A DNA stretch of 64,000 bases from Escherichia coli. GTDB taxonomy: Bacteria; Pseudomonadota; Gammaproteobacteria; Enterobacterales; Enterobacteriaceae. Below the pieces are notes generated by a model. That model was not told the origin of the DNA. It ran no database searches and saw only the letters and a list, made by a program, of their open reading frames with translations. The stretch lies in the NCBI RefSeq assembly GCF_003334785.1, contig NZ_QOWV01000006.1. The stretch is one strand, 5' to 3'. A program made the translations under genes and the position numbers. Positions 6,730 to 19,465 of this stretch are shown here, one piece after another. Position 1 is the first letter of the stretch. The number at the start of each line of letters is the position of its first letter.

Positions 6730-8325
6730 TTAATGAGCCGCTTCAGGCAGGACAAAACCCATCGCCGCATCGATAAATAATCTTTCGTCCATCAGTTTGA
6801 GTTCTGGCGAAATCACTGGGGTGAAATCCATTTTGTCGAGAATATCTTTTTGTAAATCGACGCCAGGGGCGATTTCGATTAAATGCAGGCCGTCTTCTTT
6901 CAGCGTGAATACTGCGCGCTCAGTGATATAACGAACATCCAGCCCTCGCTCGAGAGCGATTTTTCCGCTGAAAGTAATTTCCGGTAGTTCCCGAATAAAT
7001 TTCTTCACCCGTCCTTCCTGGACGATATTTAATTTGCCGTCGGTAATTTCTGTTTTTAAACTGCCCGCAGTTAATGTGCCGCAGAAAATGATTTTCTTCG
7101 AAGTGGCACTGATATCAATAAATCCACCGGTGCCCATGATTTTACCATTGAATTTATGCACGCCGACGTTACCGTGCTGGTCGACTTCAGCAAAACTCAA
7201 ATAACAAACATCCAGACCGCCACCGTGATAAAAATCAAACTGGGACGTCATATCCAGAATGGCACGGGTATTCACGTTCGCGCCAAAGGCGATCCCCTGT
7301 GAAGTAATTCCGCCAATCGGACCTGTTTCTACCGTCAGAATAAAGTCATCAGCACAACCTTCTTCTCGGGCGACCAGGCCAATGCCGTCAGCAATACCGA
7401 CGCCGACATTCCCCACCGCGCCTTTACGCATTTCGAATAATGCGCGCCGCGCAACTAATTTACGTTGGTTTAGGGGCAGGCTAAGTTTGGTACTGTCATC
7501 AAGGGTGAAGTCACCAGAAATAAAGCGGTTAACCGGTGCACCGCCATACAGTTGGGTTTGATCCGGATCGACCACCACAATATCCACCAGATAACCCGGA
7601 ATACGGACAGATTTAGGATGCAGCGTGGCTTTCTTAACCATTTTCTGCACCTGCATCATCACAATACCGCCGTTATTGTGCACCGCCTGGGCAATAACCA
7701 ATGCGTCGAGATACATCACCTCATCTTCAAAAGTGGCGTAGCCTTCACTGTCGCAGGTGGTAGCGCGAATGAAGGCAATATCTGGCGCAATCGCTTTGTA
7801 ATAGAGATATTCTTTGTTATCAAACTCGACCAGTTTAATCAGGTCTTCTTTAGTGACTTCATTCAGTTTGCCGCCTTGCTGGCGTGGATCGACAAATGTC
7901 CCGATGCCAATATCACTAATAATACCAGGCTGGTGGGCTGCGGCGGCGCGTAAGGTTTGTGTAAGTACACCTTGTGGGTAGTTATAAGCAATAATTTTAT
8001 TTTGTTCTGCGAGTTCAGAAATACGCGGCGATTGTCCCCAGTGACCACATAATGCCCATTTCACCAGACCTTCTTGCGCCAGAGGACTAATACCACGGTC
8101 GGCGCGATCGCCAAGCCCTGTTGGACTAATAATCGATAAATTACGTGGTGTTTGAGTCTGTTTATATTTATCAGCAAGAGCAGTAATTAACGTGGTGGCT
8201 TCCAGAATACCGCCGCCAGCGCCTAACACACAAAGTGTTGCTTCGTCGGGAATATAATTCACCGCTTCCTGTGCCGACAGGACCGGCACTCGTCCATTAA
8301 TACGAGGTGGTTTTACAGGTTTCAT
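6730..8325 (-). CDS. ydiF: Short-chain acyl-CoA:acetate CoA-transferase, fused alpha/beta subunits
   Basis: ORF track 531 aa; stop 11 nt upstream of the ydiO start (tight operon). Confidence 0.9.
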   Translation of the reverse strand: MKPVKPPRINGRVPVLSAQEAVNYIPDEATLCVLGAGGGILEATTLITALADKYKQTQTPRNLSIISPTGLGDRADRGISPLAQEGLVKWALCGHWGQSPRISELAEQNKIIAYNYPQGVLTQTLRAAAAHQPGIISDIGIGTFVDPRQQGGKLNEVTKEDLIKLVEFDNKEYLYYKAIAPDIAFIRATTCDSEGYATFEDEVMYLDALVIAQAVHNNGGIVMMQVQKMVKKATLHPKSVRIPGYLVDIVVVDPDQTQLYGGAPVNRFISGDFTLDDSTKLSLPLNQRKLVARRALFEMRKGAVGNVGVGIADGIGLVAREEGCADDFILTVETGPIGGITSQGIAFGANVNTRAILDMTSQFDFYHGGGLDVCYLSFAEVDQHGNVGVHKFNGKIMGTGGFIDISATSKKIIFCGTLTAGSLKTEITDGKLNIVQEGRVKKFIRELPEITFSGKIALERGLDVRYITERAVFTLKEDGLHLIEIAPGVDLQKDILDKMDFTPVISPELKLMDERLFIDAAMGFVLPEAAH

Positions 8326-8467
8326 TGTTAATTCCTGATTCAGATGTGATTTTCCCTACGCCAAATGGAGAATTAGCGCACAGAGACTCACGAAATATTT
8401 TTATTAAATACGATTGAATATATTTTTTAGTTCGGCGGGGAGGGTGTTCCCGCCGAAATATTATTGC

Positions 8468-9226
8468 TTATGCCTGGTGTAAAATAGTTAATACCGTGCG
8501 CAAATCATTTACCGAGATTTGCCCTGGCGCAGACGCTTTTTTTACCGCACCAAAAGTTGCCGCCGAGCCAAATACTTCACCAGCCAGACGAGAAATTACG
8601 CCAGTTTTTGCCATCGACATCGTGATAATTGGACGATCGGCATACTGCTCCTGCATCTCCAGGGTCGCGGCAAGCAACGTCAGCACATCGCTGGTACTTT
8701 GCGGCATCAGCGCAATCTTAGGAATATCGGCGTCGAAGGATTGCATTTTGCGCAGACGGGCAATGATTTCTTCGGCTTCCGGCGTTTTATGGAAGTCATG
8801 GTTGGACATGACTACTTTCACATCATGCGCGTGGGCGTAGGCGACGGTTTCTTTAACCTGATCATCACCGGTAAATAACTCCAGATCGATCATATCAACC
8901 AGGCCGCTGTCGATGGCTGCACGATTGAGTGCAATATAAGCCTCGGTGGAAATCGCCTGCTCGCCGCCTTCTTTGGCACTGCGGAAGGTAAACAGCAGCG
9001 GTTTTTCTGGCATGGTCTCACGGAGAATTTTTGCTGCCGCCATGACAGACTCCACATTGGAGAGGTCGGCATAGTGGTCCACACGCCATTCCAGAATATC
9101 AAAGTCCGCTTCACGATAGGCGAGAGCTTCGGATTTCACGCTGGCGATATCTTTCGCCATCAGCGAGACGATGATTTTAGGTGCGCCCGTACCAATGACG
9201 AGATCTTTTACAGTTACGGTTTTCAT
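8468..9226 (-). CDS. aroD: 3-dehydroquinate dehydratase (type I)
   Basis: ORF track 252 aa; recognised AroD sequence and length. Confidence 0.92.
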
Positions 9227-13297: not shown

Positions 13298-13434
13298 CGT
13301 GTAATGGCTGCATGAAATAAACAATAAAATATAAATAACATTATCAGCCTGCTGACGGCTTGAAGAGAGTCACAGTATCTTGTGCAACATTATTGGAAAG
13401 AGTGAGGGGCGAGGTAGCGAAGCGGAAAAATGTT

Positions 13435-13540
13435 AAAAAAAAGCCCATCGTGGGAGATGGGCAAAGACTACACACAGCAATTCGTTGTTTCACTCAGGGG
13501 ATTTCCATGCTTATAAATCAATATGTTGATTTATAACCGT
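13435..13540 (-). ncRNA. rprA: RprA small regulatory RNA (Hfq-dependent activator of rpoS translation)
   Basis: Minus-strand sequence ACGGTTATAAATCAACATATTGATTTATAAGCATGGAAATCCCCTGAGTGAAACAACGAATTGCTGTGTGTAGTCTTTGCCCATCTCCCACGATGGGC followed by a T-run; matches my recollection of E. coli RprA, including the terminal GC hairpin (CCCATCTCCCACGATGGG). Confidence 0.9.
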
Positions 13541-14838: not shown

Positions 14839-15226
14839 AACTACTTTTCACCTTTTTTGTGCGTCAAATCGTCGACGCGACGTGAACACGCGAAACTCAC
14901 CTGCATAATGATGAGCAATTTCAGCGGTTTTTAACAGGCCGATTCTGCCCTTAATTCTGATGGGCGTGTTAGAAAAAAATGTGGTACAACAACTCAGGCA
15001 ACACGCAAACGATTTACTCGTCGTATTTCAAGTTGCATGTGCTGCGGCTACGTTCGTTCACCCCAGTCACTTACTATTGTAAGCTCCTGGAGTTCACTCG
15101 CTTGCCGCCTTCCTGCAACACGAAATCCATAGAGTAAACAAACATCACCTTTCAGTGCGCTATTGCAGCAGCCTGAAAGAATAGTGTATCGACCTACATC
15201 ACAGACCGCAGGAAAGGGTCAATATA

Positions 15227-18200
15227 ATGATTCCACAGATTTCCCAGGCACCCGGCGTCGTTCAACTGGTGCTTAATTTTTTGCAAGAGCTGGAGCAACA
15301 AGGTTTTACCGGCGATACGGCGACAAGTTATGCCGATCGTCTGACAATGTCGACCGACAACAGTATTTACCAACTTCTCCCCGATGCGGTGGTATTTCCG
15401 CGTTCAACCGCAGATGTGGCGCTGATCGCCCGTCTTGCCGCGCAGGAACGCTATTCATCGCTGATCTTTACCCCCCGCGGCGGCGGCACCGGCACTAACG
15501 GTCAGGCGCTCAACCAGGGGATTATTGTTGATATGTCCCGCCATATGAACCGCATCATCGAAATTAACCCTGAAGAGGGCTGGGTGCGCGTTGAGGCCGG
15601 GGTGATAAAAGATCAACTCAATCAGTACCTGAAACCGTTCGGCTACTTTTTTGCGCCGGAACTTTCGACCAGCAACCGGGCAACGCTCGGTGGGATGATC
15701 AATACCGATGCATCCGGTCAGGGATCGCTGGTCTATGGCAAAACGTCAGATCACGTACTTGGCGTACGCGCGGTGTTGTTGGGGGGCGATATTCTCGATA
15801 CGCAACCTTTACCCGTCGAATTGGCGGAAACGCTGGGTAAATCCAATACCACAATCGGGCGAATTTATAACACGGTTTATCAACGTTGCCGTCAGCAACG
15901 CCAGTTAATTATCGACAACTTCCCCAAACTTAACCGCTTTCTTACCGGTTACGATCTGCGTCATGTCTTTAACGATGAGATGACCGAGTTCGACCTGACG
16001 CGCATTCTGACGGGTTCAGAAGGGACGCTGGCCTTTATTACCGAAGCGCGGCTGGATATTACACGCTTGCCTAAAGTGCGCCGTCTGGTGAACGTCAAAT
16101 ATGACTCTTTTGACTCTGCGCTGCGTAACGCGCCGTTTATGGTTGAGGCGCGGGCGCTTTCGGTAGAGACGGTGGACTCAAAAGTGCTGAATCTGGCGCG
16201 GGAAGATATTGTCTGGCATTCCGTCAGCGAGTTGATTACCGATGTGCCTGACCAAGAGATGCTCGGGCTGAACATTGTGGAATTTGCTGGTGATGATGAG
16301 GCGCTGATTGATGAGCGGGTAAATGCACTCTGTGCGCGGTTGGATGAGCTGATCGCCAGTCATCAAGCAGGTGTCATCGGCTGGCAGGTGTGCCGTGAGC
16401 TGGCGGGGGTTGAACGTATCTATGCAATGCGCAAAAAAGCCGTTGGTCTGCTTGGCAATGCCAAAGGTGCCGCTAAGCCAATTCCGTTTGCTGAGGATAC
16501 CTGCGTACCGCCGGAACACCTGGCGGATTATATTGCTGAATTTCGCGCGCTGCTCGACAGCCACGGCTTAAGCTACGGTATGTTCGGTCACGTCGACGCA
16601 GGTGTCTTGCACGTCCGTCCAGCGCTGGATATGTGCGATCCTCAACAAGAGATTTTGATGAAGCAAATCTCTGATGACGTGGTGGCGCTGACTGCGAAAT
16701 ACGGTGGTTTGTTGTGGGGCGAGCACGGCAAAGGTTTTCGCGCTGAATACAGCCCGGCGTTTTTCGGTGAGGAACTTTTTGCAGAACTGCGCAAAGTGAA
16801 AGCGGCATTTGACCCGCATAACCGACTCAACCCAGGGAAGATTTGCCCGCCAGAAGGTCTCGATGCGCCGATGATGAAAGTGGACGCGGTGAAGCGCGGT
16901 ACATTCGATCGGCAGATCCCCATTGCGGTACGCCAGCAGTGGCGCGGTGCGATGGAGTGTAACGGCAACGGTTTATGCTTCAACTTTGATGCCCGTAGTC
17001 CGATGTGTCCGTCGATGAAGATCACCCAGAACCGGATTCATTCACCGAAAGGGCGCGCAACGCTGGTGCGTGAATGGCTGCGTTTGTTGGCGGATCGCGG
17101 CGTTGATCCACTCAAACTGGAACAAGAACTGCCTGAATCCGGCGTCAGTTTGCGGACGTTAATTGCCCGCACGCGCAATAGCTGGCATGCGAATAAAGGC
17201 GAATATGACTTCTCACACGAAGTCAAAGAGGCGATGTCGGGCTGTCTGGCCTGTAAAGCGTGTTCGACCCAGTGCCCCATCAAAATTGATGTGCCGGAGT
17301 TTCGCTCTCGTTTTCTGCAGCTCTATCACACCCGTTATTTACGCCCGCTGCGCGACCACCTCGTCGCTACGGTCGAGAGCTACGCGCCGCTGATGGCACG
17401 CGCGCCGAAAACCTTTAACTTCTTCATTAACCAGCCGCTGGTGCGCAAACTCTCGGAAAAACATATCGGCATGGTTGATTTGCCGCTGCTGTCGGTCCCC
17501 TCGCTACAACAACAAATGGTGGGGCATCGCTCGGCAAACATGACGCTGGAACAGCTTGAATCTCTCAATGCAGAGCAGAAAGCGCGCACAGTGTTGGTGG
17601 TGCAGGACCCCTTTACCAGCTATTACGATGCGCAAGTGGTGGCGGATTTTGTCCGTCTGGTCGAAAAATTAGGTTTCCAGCCTGTGTTACTGCCATTTTC
17701 GCCAAATGGCAAAGCCCAGCATATTAAAGGTTTTCTTAATCGTTTTGCGAAGACGGCGAAAAAGACGGCGGATTTCCTCAACCGTATGGCGAAGCTGGGT
17801 ATGCCAATGGTGGGCGTCGATCCGGCGCTGGTACTTTGTTATCGCGATGAATATAAACTGGCGCTGGGCGAGGAGCGTGGCGAGTTTAACGTCTTACTGG
17901 CGAATGAATGGCTGGCAAGCGCACTTGAGTCACAGCCAGTGGCTACAGTCAGCGGTGAATCATGGTATTTCTTTGGTCACTGTACCGAAGTTACCGCCTT
18001 GCCGGGTGCGCCAGCACAATGGGCCGCGATATTTGCCCGTTTTGGCGCGAAACTGGAAAATGTCAGCGTGGGTTGCTGCGGCATGGCAGGGACTTACGGA
18101 CATGAAGCGAAAAACCATGAAAATTCGCTCGGGATCTATGAGTTATCCTGGCATCAGGCTATGCAGCGACTGCCGCGTAACCGCTGTCTGGCGACCGGAT

Positions 18201-18283
18201 ATTCCTGCCGTAGCCAGGTAAAACGGGTTGAAGGCACGGGGGTACGCCATCCTGTGCAGGCTTTACTGGAGATTATTAAATGA
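15227..18283 (+). CDS. ydiJ: FAD-linked oxidase fused to an Fe-S domain (D-2-hydroxyglutarate dehydrogenase)
   Basis: ORF track 1018 aa; N-terminal FAD-binding region; Fe-S motif CLACKACSTQCP; a second Cys cluster near the C-terminus. Confidence 0.9.
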   Translation: MIPQISQAPGVVQLVLNFLQELEQQGFTGDTATSYADRLTMSTDNSIYQLLPDAVVFPRSTADVALIARLAAQERYSSLIFTPRGGGTGTNGQALNQGIIVDMSRHMNRIIEINPEEGWVRVEAGVIKDQLNQYLKPFGYFFAPELSTSNRATLGGMINTDASGQGSLVYGKTSDHVLGVRAVLLGGDILDTQPLPVELAETLGKSNTTIGRIYNTVYQRCRQQRQLIIDNFPKLNRFLTGYDLRHVFNDEMTEFDLTRILTGSEGTLAFITEARLDITRLPKVRRLVNVKYDSFDSALRNAPFMVEARALSVETVDSKVLNLAREDIVWHSVSELITDVPDQEMLGLNIVEFAGDDEALIDERVNALCARLDELIASHQAGVIGWQVCRELAGVERIYAMRKKAVGLLGNAKGAAKPIPFAEDTCVPPEHLADYIAEFRALLDSHGLSYGMFGHVDAGVLHVRPALDMCDPQQEILMKQISDDVVALTAKYGGLLWGEHGKGFRAEYSPAFFGEELFAELRKVKAAFDPHNRLNPGKICPPEGLDAPMMKVDAVKRGTFDRQIPIAVRQQWRGAMECNGNGLCFNFDARSPMCPSMKITQNRIHSPKGRATLVREWLRLLADRGVDPLKLEQELPESGVSLRTLIARTRNSWHANKGEYDFSHEVKEAMSGCLACKACSTQCPIKIDVPEFRSRFLQLYHTRYLRPLRDHLVATVESYAPLMARAPKTFNFFINQPLVRKLSEKHIGMVDLPLLSVPSLQQQMVGHRSANMTLEQLESLNAEQKARTVLVVQDPFTSYYDAQVVADFVRLVEKLGFQPVLLPFSPNGKAQHIKGFLNRFAKTAKKTADFLNRMAKLGMPMVGVDPALVLCYRDEYKLALGEERGEFNVLLANEWLASALESQPVATVSGESWYFFGHCTEVTALPGAPAQWAAIFARFGAKLENVSVGCCGMAGTYGHEAKNHENSLGIYELSWHQAMQRLPRNRCLATGYSCRSQVKRVEGTGVRHPVQALLEIIK

Positions 18284-18690
18284 TATGGAAACGGAAAATC
18301 ACCCTGGAAGCACTGAATGCTATGGGTGAAGGAAACATGGTGGGGTTCCTGGATATTCGCTTTGAACATATTGGTGATGACACCCTTGAAGCGACAATGC
18401 CAGTAGACTCGCGGACAAAGCAGCCTTTCGGGTTGCTGCATGGAGGAGCATCCGTGGTACTGGCCGAAAGTATCGGTTCCGTTGCCGGTTATTTATGTAC
18501 CGAAGGTGAGCAAAAAGTGGTTGGTCTGGAAATCAATGCTAACCACGTCCGCTCGGCACGAGAAGGGCGGGTGCGCGGCGTATGCAAACCGTTGCATCTC
18601 GGTTCGCGTCACCAGGTCTGGCAGATTGAAATCTTCGATGAGAAAGGGCGTTTGTGCTGTTCGTCACGATTGACGACCGCCATTTTGTGA
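18280..18690 (+). CDS. menI: 1,4-dihydroxy-2-naphthoyl-CoA hydrolase (hotdog-fold thioesterase)
   Basis: ORF track 136 aa; start overlaps ydiJ stop (ATGA). Confidence 0.9.
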   Translation: MIWKRKITLEALNAMGEGNMVGFLDIRFEHIGDDTLEATMPVDSRTKQPFGLLHGGASVVLAESIGSVAGYLCTEGEQKVVGLEINANHVRSAREGRVRGVCKPLHLGSRHQVWQIEIFDEKGRLCCSSRLTTAIL

Positions 18691-18789
18691 CGTTGTCACC
18701 AGAAAAGTGTGACGCATATTGCTTTTGGTCATTATCTGCACAGTAAACGGTGGTATACTGTGCAGGTCTTGTCTAAAAGCGAGGATGCT

Positions 18790-18978
18790 ATGTCTACTCA
18801 ACTTGATCCCACCCAGCTGGCCATTGAATTTTTACGCCGTGACCAGAGCAATCTTTCACCTGCCCAATATCTCAAACGTCTGAAACAACTAGAACTTGAA
18901 TTTGCTGACCTGCTTACTCTCTCTTCTGCTGAATTAAAAGAAGAAATCTACTTTGCCTGGCGTCTGGGCGTGCATTGA
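18790..18978 (+). CDS. ydiH: Small protein of unknown function
   Basis: ORF track 89 aa trimmed to ATG 18790 (MSTQLDPTQLAIEF...), 62 aa as I recall for YdiH. Confidence 0.7.
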   Translation: MSTQLDPTQLAIEFLRRDQSNLSPAQYLKRLKQLELEFADLLTLSSAELKEEIYFAWRLGVH

Positions 18979-19131
18979 TCCTGACTTAATGCCGCAAGTT
19001 CGCCAAATCGACCTGGATTAACCTCCGTCCAGGTTCGATGACCTTCTTAATACTGCTTATCTACCGCCTGATATTGTTCAAAAATAATACTAATCGCAGT
19101 TTGTGTTAAAACGGCGGGTTAGCTTTATGAG

Positions 19132-19245
19132 ATTATTCTTATCGCCCCTTCAAGAGCTAAGCCACTGAGAGTGCCGGAGATAAGCGCCGGATGGGGTAGA
19201 AACCCTTAAGCCTGTGTCGCACAGACTTAAGGGTTTTCTTATTTC
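19132..19245 (+). ncRNA. rydB: Candidate RydB sRNA locus with rho-independent terminator hairpin (exact ends uncertain)
   Basis: Intergenic ydiH-sufA position where rydB lies in E. coli; strong hairpin AACCCTTAAG...CTTAAGGGTT (19201..19235) followed by TTTCTTATTTCT on the + strand. The sequence itself was not matched from memory. Confidence 0.35.
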
Positions 19246-19465
19246 TGAACGCTGCACTTTTTTACCTATCTCTTAAATAGTCATTTTCAATACAACTTTT
19301 TCTTTTTCATCACAGCCTTAATGCTCCTTAGATAATAACCATTATCTAACAATGAGATACCTAATTCTTAGCGTGCCTGTTAACCCACACATCAGGGTCT
19401 ATGCTTATTAAAAGCAGGCAAAAAGCATGTTTTACGGTAAAGCCCCTGCGTTTGCTGGGTTGAAC

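Follow-up and report, generated by a model that had tools for sequence, protein, structure and literature searches.

The ydiJ-menI-ydiH locus of Escherichia coli occupies positions 15227-18978 of the stretch of DNA analyzed here, whose full length of 64,000 nucleotides is referred to below as the window. The closest described relatives of the first gene product are the YdiJ-type D-2-hydroxyglutarate (D-2-HG) dehydrogenases of E. coli, Pantoea ananatis and Pseudomonas putida (PP4493); the window protein is the E. coli member itself and shows no difference from it. Purified E. coli YdiJ is strictly specific for D-2-HG, with a Km of 83 uM, and a ydiJ knockout accumulates the D-2-HG made by SerA (Samsonov 2022, PMC9504171). 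The SerA/YdiJ cycle, with SerA as the source of D-2-HG, has been confirmed in vivo (PMC12297413; Nature Communications, 2025). Both papers describe the enzyme as a fusion of GlcD and GlpC, and both domains are indispensable in vivo (PMC12297413). Another enzyme of this general build is PP4737 of P. putida, a quinone-reducing multidomain iron-sulfur (Fe-S) D-lactate dehydrogenase (Jiang 2017, as cited in PMC12297413), in which, according to that account, a GlcD-like dehydrogenase linked to flavin adenine dinucleotide (FAD) is fused to an Fe-S/GlpC-like module, as in YdiJ. The two are likened by description and not by sequence; the substrate of PP4737 is D-lactate and that of YdiJ is D-2-HG, and quinone reduction is a property of PP4737 that has only been proposed for YdiJ. 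The second gene product, MenI (YdiI), is the 1,4-dihydroxy-2-naphthoyl-coenzyme A (DHNA-CoA) thioesterase of menaquinone synthesis, as papers citing Chen 2013 report, and the citing literature gives its paralog EntH (YbdB) as 60% identical to it and different in role.

A prediction made earlier from the letters of this stretch (hereafter the original prediction) treated ydiJ, menI and ydiH as one unit and took the tight coupling of the first two genes as a hint of a functional link between their products, such as quinone-coupled oxidation. All three genes are already annotated and two of them have published biochemistry. On the evidence set out below, the best explanation of the locus, to which we assign a probability of about 0.72, is a two-gene ydiJ-menI operon that co-expresses two separately established enzymes without a demonstrated shared pathway, with ydiH standing apart.

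Organization of the proposed ydiJ-menI transcription unit

The genes and the junction between the first two of them are as follows.

15227-18283, + strand: ydiJ coding sequence, 1018 codons; D-2-HG dehydrogenase in which a GlcD-like flavoprotein is joined to a GlpC-like Fe-S module (open reading frame, RefSeq, NCBIfam NF049975 equivalog, enzymology in PMC9504171)
18268-18271, + strand: GGAG, Shine-Dalgarno-like site for menI, inside Leu-Glu codons at the C-terminus of ydiJ
18280-18283, + strand: ATGA overlap of the ydiJ stop and the menI start, seen in the sequence and kept in 11 of 15 Enterobacterales loci
18280-18690, + strand: menI coding sequence, 136 codons (NCBIfam NF007631, RefSeq)
18790-18978, + strand: ydiH coding sequence, 62 codons, function unknown (Pfam PF15930, RefSeq)

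Once the offset is removed, the RefSeq coordinates of all three coding sequences in E. coli K-12 MG1655 are the same as those of the window open reading frames (ORFs), and positions 14900-19400 are 100% identical to that genome and are found in 5421 of 5426 complete E. coli genomes. The original prediction had described the layout correctly: ydiJ has 1018 codons and its TGA (18281-18283) overlaps the menI ATG at 18280 (...ATT AAA TGA / ATG ATA TGG), and ydiH follows on the same strand after a spacer that had been put at 100 nucleotides and measures 99 (18691-18789), with its ATG at 18790. In one chicken isolate, E. coli strain L9 (NZ_CP142044.1 2191877-2197449, hit H1), the ydiJ-menI-ydiH stretch exceeds its K-12 length by about 1.07 kb; besides the three genes, the matched segment there carries an annotated ISApl1 (IS30-like) transposase. 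Across the E. coli collection, three plasmid places also match the region of the locus.

The 4-nucleotide overlap by itself is nothing unusual and represents an ordinary operon arrangement. Within the surrounding 44.5 kb it occurs in exactly this form in 4 of 30 adjacent same-strand pairs of coding sequences (ydiT/ydiS, ydiJ/menI, sufD/sufS and ydhX/phsC), so that ydiJ/menI has three other such pairs as neighbors. It resembles bacterial ATGA-overlapped operon pairs in general both in the stop/start overlap and in the Shine-Dalgarno sequence placed inside the preceding gene, and has no feature that distinguishes it from them. Of the 14 Enterobacterales junctions printed, 13 have the GGAG 9-12 nucleotides before the menI ATG, Superficieibacter having GGAA at this place. 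A consensus scan returned no promoter-like or terminator-like site at the ydiJ/menI junction. In Enterobacterales lacking ydiH, a GC hairpin followed by a T-run is found directly 3' of menI. Upstream, the 388-nucleotide intergenic region between the divergent ydiK and ydiJ (14839-15226) contains no + strand match to the sigma-70 consensus at the threshold of the scan; therefore the ydiJ promoter is not obvious from the sequence. A study of constitutive RpoD promoters by genomic SELEX (systematic evolution of ligands by exponential enrichment) lists 'ydiJI' and 'ydiH' as transcription units (PMC3946193). The literature naming both ydiJ and menI otherwise does so only as members of a large deletion or in gene tables. 

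The identity of the second gene is also as predicted. MenI scores 312.2 bits against the NCBIfam model of the DHNA-CoA hydrolase (NF007631, cut-off 226) and 197.1 bits, under the cut-off of 237, against the model of EntH, so that the window protein reaches the MenI equivalog level, in agreement with its RefSeq annotation as MenI.

Phylogenetic distribution of the ydiJ-thioesterase pair

In order to determine how widely the pair is conserved, we compared 79 YdiJ loci, each taken with 5 kb on either side, from species-representative genomes. The matches listed in the first YdiJ search were all at least 89% identical, and the diverse YdiJ alignment was built from a library clustered at 50%. Of the 16 Enterobacterales loci, 15 have a hotdog gene of the YdiI family directly downstream of ydiJ and in the same orientation, Rosenbergiella being the sole one without an adjacent hotdog gene. 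Apart from the 11 ATGA junctions, the 15 pairs include three with a 1-nucleotide TGATG/TAATG overlap and one, in Rahnella, with a gap of about 18 nucleotides. The arrangement extends to Pasteurellaceae (3 of 4 loci, with gaps of 13 and 69 nucleotides and one locus split by an inserted ORF), to Aeromonas caviae and to a Psychromonas metagenome-assembled genome (MAG). A complete Psychromonas genome, reached from the thioesterase side, has ydiJ upstream, frameshifted in the assembly (Psychromonas sp. KJ10-10, L081 1617-4672), and a gammaproteobacterial MAG has only a hotdog relic beside ydiJ, truncated (L016 7381-7638). The ORF inserted in Rodentibacter (L045 8269-8706) is DUF559/endonuclease-like by eye. 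In Aeromonas, an ORF of 160-190 amino acids and a terminator-like hairpin stand between ydiJ and the thioesterase; in A. caviae (L048 about 8057-8545) the extra ORF overlaps the ydiJ stop (TGATG) and is followed by the terminator.

Beyond these groups the pair was not observed. No hotdog gene was found within 5 kb of ydiJ in any of six Vibrionaceae or four Shewanellaceae loci, in 13 other Alteromonadales and Rheinheimera, or at any Pseudomonas, Halomonas, Oceanospirillales, alpha- or beta-proteobacterial or SAR324 locus. As candidates for divergent hotdog genes we considered the small same-strand ORFs (136-175 amino acids) that come after ydiJ in Vibrio, Alteromonadales, Shewanella and Oceanospirillales, and rejected them on identity: they encode an isoprenylcysteine-methyltransferase-like membrane protein, a MarR regulator, RraA and two unknown proteins. 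When the Psychromonas thioesterase was used as a query for YdiI-family genes of Vibrio and Shewanella, all 120 matches listed were from Psychromonas. Adjacency of ydiJ and the thioesterase is not retained within 5 kb in the six Vibrionaceae and four Shewanellaceae loci, whose genomes may carry a YdiI-family gene elsewhere.

YdiJ orthologs with 46-52% identity and all Fe-S cysteines intact are present in Pseudomonas, Halomonas, Bradyrhizobium and Methylobacterium. By textbook knowledge, ubiquinone is the only quinone of Pseudomonas, Halomonas and the alpha-proteobacteria, and Vibrio and Shewanella are menaquinone producers. Because YdiJ is intact in ubiquinone-only hosts and unlinked from the thioesterase in Vibrio and Shewanella, this distribution indicates that the YdiJ family needs neither MenI nor menaquinone.

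Where the pair does occur outside Enterobacterales, the second gene is less well defined. The ydiJ-adjacent hotdog proteins of Haemophilus, Aeromonas and Psychromonas score 113-171 bits against the MenI model and 122-170 bits against the EntH model, all under the cut-offs, and fit neither group by hidden Markov model score. From these scores they are assigned to the YdiI/EntH family only, and homology does not fix their substrate.

The syntenic block around ydiJ also keeps ppsR-ppsA upstream (in Alteromonadales and most Enterobacterales), ydiK and sufA; therefore we view it as vertically inherited synteny that includes functionally unrelated genes. In Alteromonadales, ppsA (about 790 amino acids), with a divergent ppsR, lies just upstream of ydiJ on the same strand, at a distance of 90-425 nucleotides; in most Enterobacterales ppsA lies beyond ydiK, making ppsR-ppsA-(ydiK)-ydiJ an old syntenic block. 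The identity of the protein clusters concerned (c2 and c5; loci L022, L023, L025-L027, L030, L037-L039 and L041, and most Enterobacterales loci) was taken from their size and the E. coli map. In favor of the functional link of the original prediction, four gammaproteobacterial orders have kept the pair, which is more than an accident at the level of one family; but YdiJ is found without a hotdog neighbor in many lineages and the block keeps unrelated genes, and adjacency offers a weak basis for inferring a functional link between YdiJ and MenI. Co-expression of ydiJ and the thioesterase was nevertheless probably selected in the clade of Enterobacterales, Pasteurellales, Aeromonadales and Psychromonas, because the pair is old and has been kept tight.

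Other neighbors of ydiJ were observed in lineages outside this clade. A divergent regulator of the LysR/GcvA type, about 300 amino acids long, lies upstream of ydiJ in Pseudomonas, Marinobacterium, Nitrincola and Amphritea (L043, L044, L047, L050, L051, L053-L055, L057, L058 and L061); it is possibly HgcR, the D-2-HG-responsive activator of PMC12297413. That position is taken in Vibrio by the gene of another protein, of about 230 amino acids. A same-strand gene of the RraA/4-hydroxy-4-methyl-2-oxoglutarate-aldolase family (229 bits on the RraA equivalog) follows ydiJ in Nitrincola, Marinobacterium and Amphritea (L043, L051 and L054). Its relation to 2-oxoacids may make it more informative on the metabolic context of YdiJ in those bacteria than menI is in E. 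coli.

ydiH and the menI-ydiH spacer

The spacer between menI and ydiH, and the DNA downstream of ydiH, carry the following features.

18693-18720, + strand: sigma-70 promoter-like TTGTCA-16-CATATT, assigned to ydiH (consensus scan; hexamers listed in PMC3946193)
18719-18782, + strand: long imperfect hairpin/palindrome in the spacer (fold, pairing map)
18751-18759, + strand: extended -10-like TGgTATACT, a putative alternative ydiH promoter element (conserved sequence)
19144-19204, + strand: rydB small RNA, downstream of ydiH (Rfam RF00118, 81.6 bits against a gathering score of 50)
19199-19237, + strand: strong terminator hairpin with U-run, predicted by folding to end rydB and any ydiH read-through

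YdiH matches Pfam PF15930 over its whole length (E=2.7e-43, positions 1-62 of 62) and has no NCBIfam match. Of the 79 loci, only ones from Escherichia and Citrobacter contain a homolog of it. The TTGTCA and CATATT hexamers are given as the constitutive RpoD promoter of ydiH, identified by genomic SELEX in vitro (PMC3946193). The real promoter may instead be the extended -10 element, since the -35 hexamer (18693-18698) is deleted in Citrobacter while E. coli, E. albertii and two Citrobacter sequences all keep TGnTATACT, the variable base n being G, T or C.

The spacer also has a strong potential for secondary structure. The segment 18685-18795 folds at -48.3 kcal/mol, compared with -26.2 +/- 2.9 for shuffled sequences (z=-7.6), and none of 200 shuffles was as stable. 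The hairpin has no U-run, overlaps both candidate ydiH promoters, is present as a single copy per E. coli genome and not as a dispersed repeat, is unannotated, and matches no Rfam family. Among six Escherichia and Citrobacter sequences, four changes affect one side of a pair and remain wobble-compatible, two pairs are broken, and compensatory changes are absent, a pattern that does not discriminate between RNA structure, a DNA operator and promoter conservation. The hairpin could be an operator, a structure of the 5' untranslated region or a processing site; a look by eye only for a LexA or Fur box in the palindrome gave no convincing match.

It is conceivable that the three genes form a single operon in which ydiH is expressed mainly by read-through from the ydiJ promoter. 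The common strand, the 99-nucleotide gap, the scan, which found no canonical intrinsic terminator between menI and ydiH, and the missing U-run of the hairpin are all compatible with such an arrangement. We consider it unlikely, however, given the RpoD promoter placed in the spacer by SELEX, the separate listing of the two units, the conserved extended -10 element, and the fact that ydiH is missing from most Enterobacterales, in which menI ends with a terminator. In addition, multiple stresses lower ydiJ and raise ydiH expression according to a transcriptome meta-analysis, and in a read-through RNA the hairpin would, according to the pairing map, engage half of the ydiH Shine-Dalgarno site together with its AUG. 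Therefore, we conclude that the conserved unit is most likely ydiJ-menI and that ydiH is probably a later, separately promoted addition, because it has its own SELEX-listed promoter, a narrow range and a stress response opposite to that of ydiJ, and because menI is followed by a terminator elsewhere. The three-gene unit of the original prediction is not supported; of the independent promoters that it had named, jointly with a lack of quinone dependence, as evidence against its proposal, one was found for ydiH, in the spacer, and none for menI.

On the other side of ydiJ and beyond ydiK, the RprA small RNA is encoded on the - strand (13433-13540; Rfam, 118.5 bits).

The iron-sulfur module of YdiJ and its proposed quinone coupling

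We conducted domain analysis of YdiJ, which gave the following features.

15380-15802, + strand: FAD_binding_4 domain, amino acids 52-192 (Pfam PF01565, E=7e-38)
16067-16843, + strand: FAD-oxidase_C domain, amino acids 281-539 (Pfam PF02913, E=3e-68)
16958-17011, + strand: degenerate Fe-S motif C578-x5-C584-x9-C594-P595 (regular expression on the translation; C578, C584, C594 and P595 invariant in 35 homologs)
17216-18274, + strand: GlpC-like C-terminal half, amino acids 664-1016 (NCBIfam GlpC PRK11168, E=1.3e-31, model positions 51-398 of 401, under the equivalog cut-off)
17243-17278, + strand: the sole canonical CxxCxxCxxxCP motif, amino acids 673-684, CLACKACSTQCP (C673, C676, C679, C683 and P684 invariant; inside the Fer4_8 match)

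The protein scores 1727.9 bits against the NCBIfam equivalog NF049975 (cut-off 1350), with amino acids 1-1016 aligned to positions 1-1017 of the 1018 in the model, and this match, together with the published enzymology (PMC9504171), gives the predicted 2-hydroxyacid-type dehydrogenase its specific identity as a D-2-HG dehydrogenase. An FAD-linked oxidase domain was likewise recovered by Pfam, but of the several CxxCxxCxxxCP motifs that had been proposed only one is canonical, spelled C673-LA-C-KA-C-STQ-CP684, and the one upstream of it is degenerate. The Fer4_8 dicluster region spans amino acids 577-687. A third group of cysteines, C919, C950-C951-G952 and C994, is CCG-like and invariant in the 35 homologs, and the Pfam CCG model gave no match in YdiJ even at E<=10. 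Altogether, 11 cysteines of these three groups are invariant in the 35-sequence alignment, whose members are 33-58% identical to the query. The N-terminal half resembles GlcD of the GlcDEF system (TIGR00387, E=9e-56) and the C-terminal half GlpC of the GlpABC system, from which YdiJ differs in that the modules are fused in one chain of 1018 amino acids and score far under the equivalog cut-offs of those families. Unlike GlpC, YdiJ has a degenerate first Fe-S motif and is passed over by the Pfam CCG model. The PDB contains no full-length structure of a YdiJ-type enzyme, the matches being only N-terminal relatives of the VAO/GlcD family.

Quinone-coupled oxidation by YdiJ is plausible by analogy, and it is plausible because of the enzyme's own GlpC-like Fe-S half and not because menI is adjacent. 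The hypothesis is already in print: the discussion of PMC12297413 (2025) proposes, from the GlpC domain and not from menI, that this domain permits direct use of quinone, by analogy with PP4737. The quinone-coupled oxidation suggested by the original prediction can therefore stand on the Fe-S half of YdiJ; the adjacency of menI that was offered as the reason for it is a weak one, as YdiJ orthologs in many other lineages have no hotdog neighbor.

The two-gene reading suggests the following course of events. The ydiJ and menI genes would be co-transcribed and translated from the overlapping stop and start codons. YdiJ oxidizes the SerA by-product D-2-HG to 2-oxoglutarate at its FAD site, a step shown in the literature, and electrons would most likely pass from FAD through the dicluster region and the CCG-like cluster of the GlpC-like half to the quinone pool of the membrane. 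Which quinone accepts them would depend on the host: in Pseudomonas-type bacteria it would be ubiquinone, and in E. coli it could be ubiquinone, menaquinone or demethylmenaquinone. MenI separately hydrolyzes DHNA-CoA in menaquinone synthesis, as reported in the papers that cite the original work. The pair would go back to an ancestor shared by Enterobacterales, Pasteurellales, Aeromonadales and Psychromonas, and ydiH would be a small gene that was acquired recently and is transcribed separately, from a promoter of its own.

Several points weigh against this reading. The assays of YdiJ used the artificial acceptors phenazine ethosulfate and dichlorophenolindophenol (PES/DCIP), and the physiological acceptor is stated to be unknown (PMC9504171). 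The evidence for the proposed co-transcription of ydiJ and menI, and for the promoter of ydiH, consists of sequence features and in vitro SELEX. The adjacency is long-lived (15/16 Enterobacterales, 3/4 Pasteurellaceae, Aeromonas, two Psychromonas and the MAG relic), and gene order this deep is usually lost unless selected, so that a functional reason for the co-expression cannot be dismissed.

Such a reason might be a real physiological link in which menaquinone or demethylmenaquinone is the specific acceptor of the electrons from YdiJ, for instance when serine is made anaerobically, with co-expression of MenI matching the quinone supply. The four orders that conserve the pair are, by textbook knowledge, makers of menaquinone or demethylmenaquinone, GlpC is an established part of the anaerobic, menaquinone-linked glycerol-3-phosphate dehydrogenase, and the open identity of the acceptor leaves room for a menaquinone. 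We nevertheless regard this link as improbable. The orthologs with intact Fe-S cysteines in the ubiquinone-only hosts named above, the presence of ydiJ without an adjacent thioesterase in the menaquinone producers Vibrio and Shewanella, and the separation of the two genes by an extra ORF and a terminator in Aeromonas all speak against it. Furthermore, the other men genes are not at the ydiJ locus, and MenI performs one step of a nine-step pathway, so that co-expressing MenI alone would not be expected to control quinone supply. Taken more broadly, there is a slight chance that the conserved pair of ydiJ and a YdiI-family gene reflects a physiological coupling so far unexamined, either menaquinone- or demethylmenaquinone-dependent anaerobic recycling of D-2-HG in serine synthesis or a second substrate of the thioesterase tied to 2-hydroxyglutarate metabolism. 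That the thioesterase has a second, YdiJ-related job on a CoA thioester derived from 2-hydroxyglutarate, 2-oxoglutarate or glutarate, or that the two enzymes are linked through MenD using the 2-oxoglutarate regenerated by YdiJ, is very improbable: the nearly equal MenI and EntH scores of the hotdog neighbors outside Enterobacterales, the differing roles of EntH and YdiI at their level of identity, and the established consumption of 2-oxoglutarate by MenD leave space for it, but none of the data suggest a substrate of this kind, 2-oxoglutarate is plentiful in central metabolism, and the substrate of YdiJ is a free acid and not a CoA ester (PMC9504171).

We therefore retain the two-gene operon of separately established enzymes as the preferred reading. 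As it stands the locus matters little, given that its genes are annotated and that the quinone idea has been published on better grounds. The new element is comparative: the pairing of ydiJ with a thioesterase gene is older than the level of Enterobacteriaceae and yet dispensable in related lineages, and therefore a menaquinone-specific link is the subject of an inexpensive experiment rather than a likely discovery. The physiological acceptor of YdiJ-type enzymes, for its part, bears on how SerA-driven serine synthesis is sustained and on the engineering of D-2-HG production or removal.

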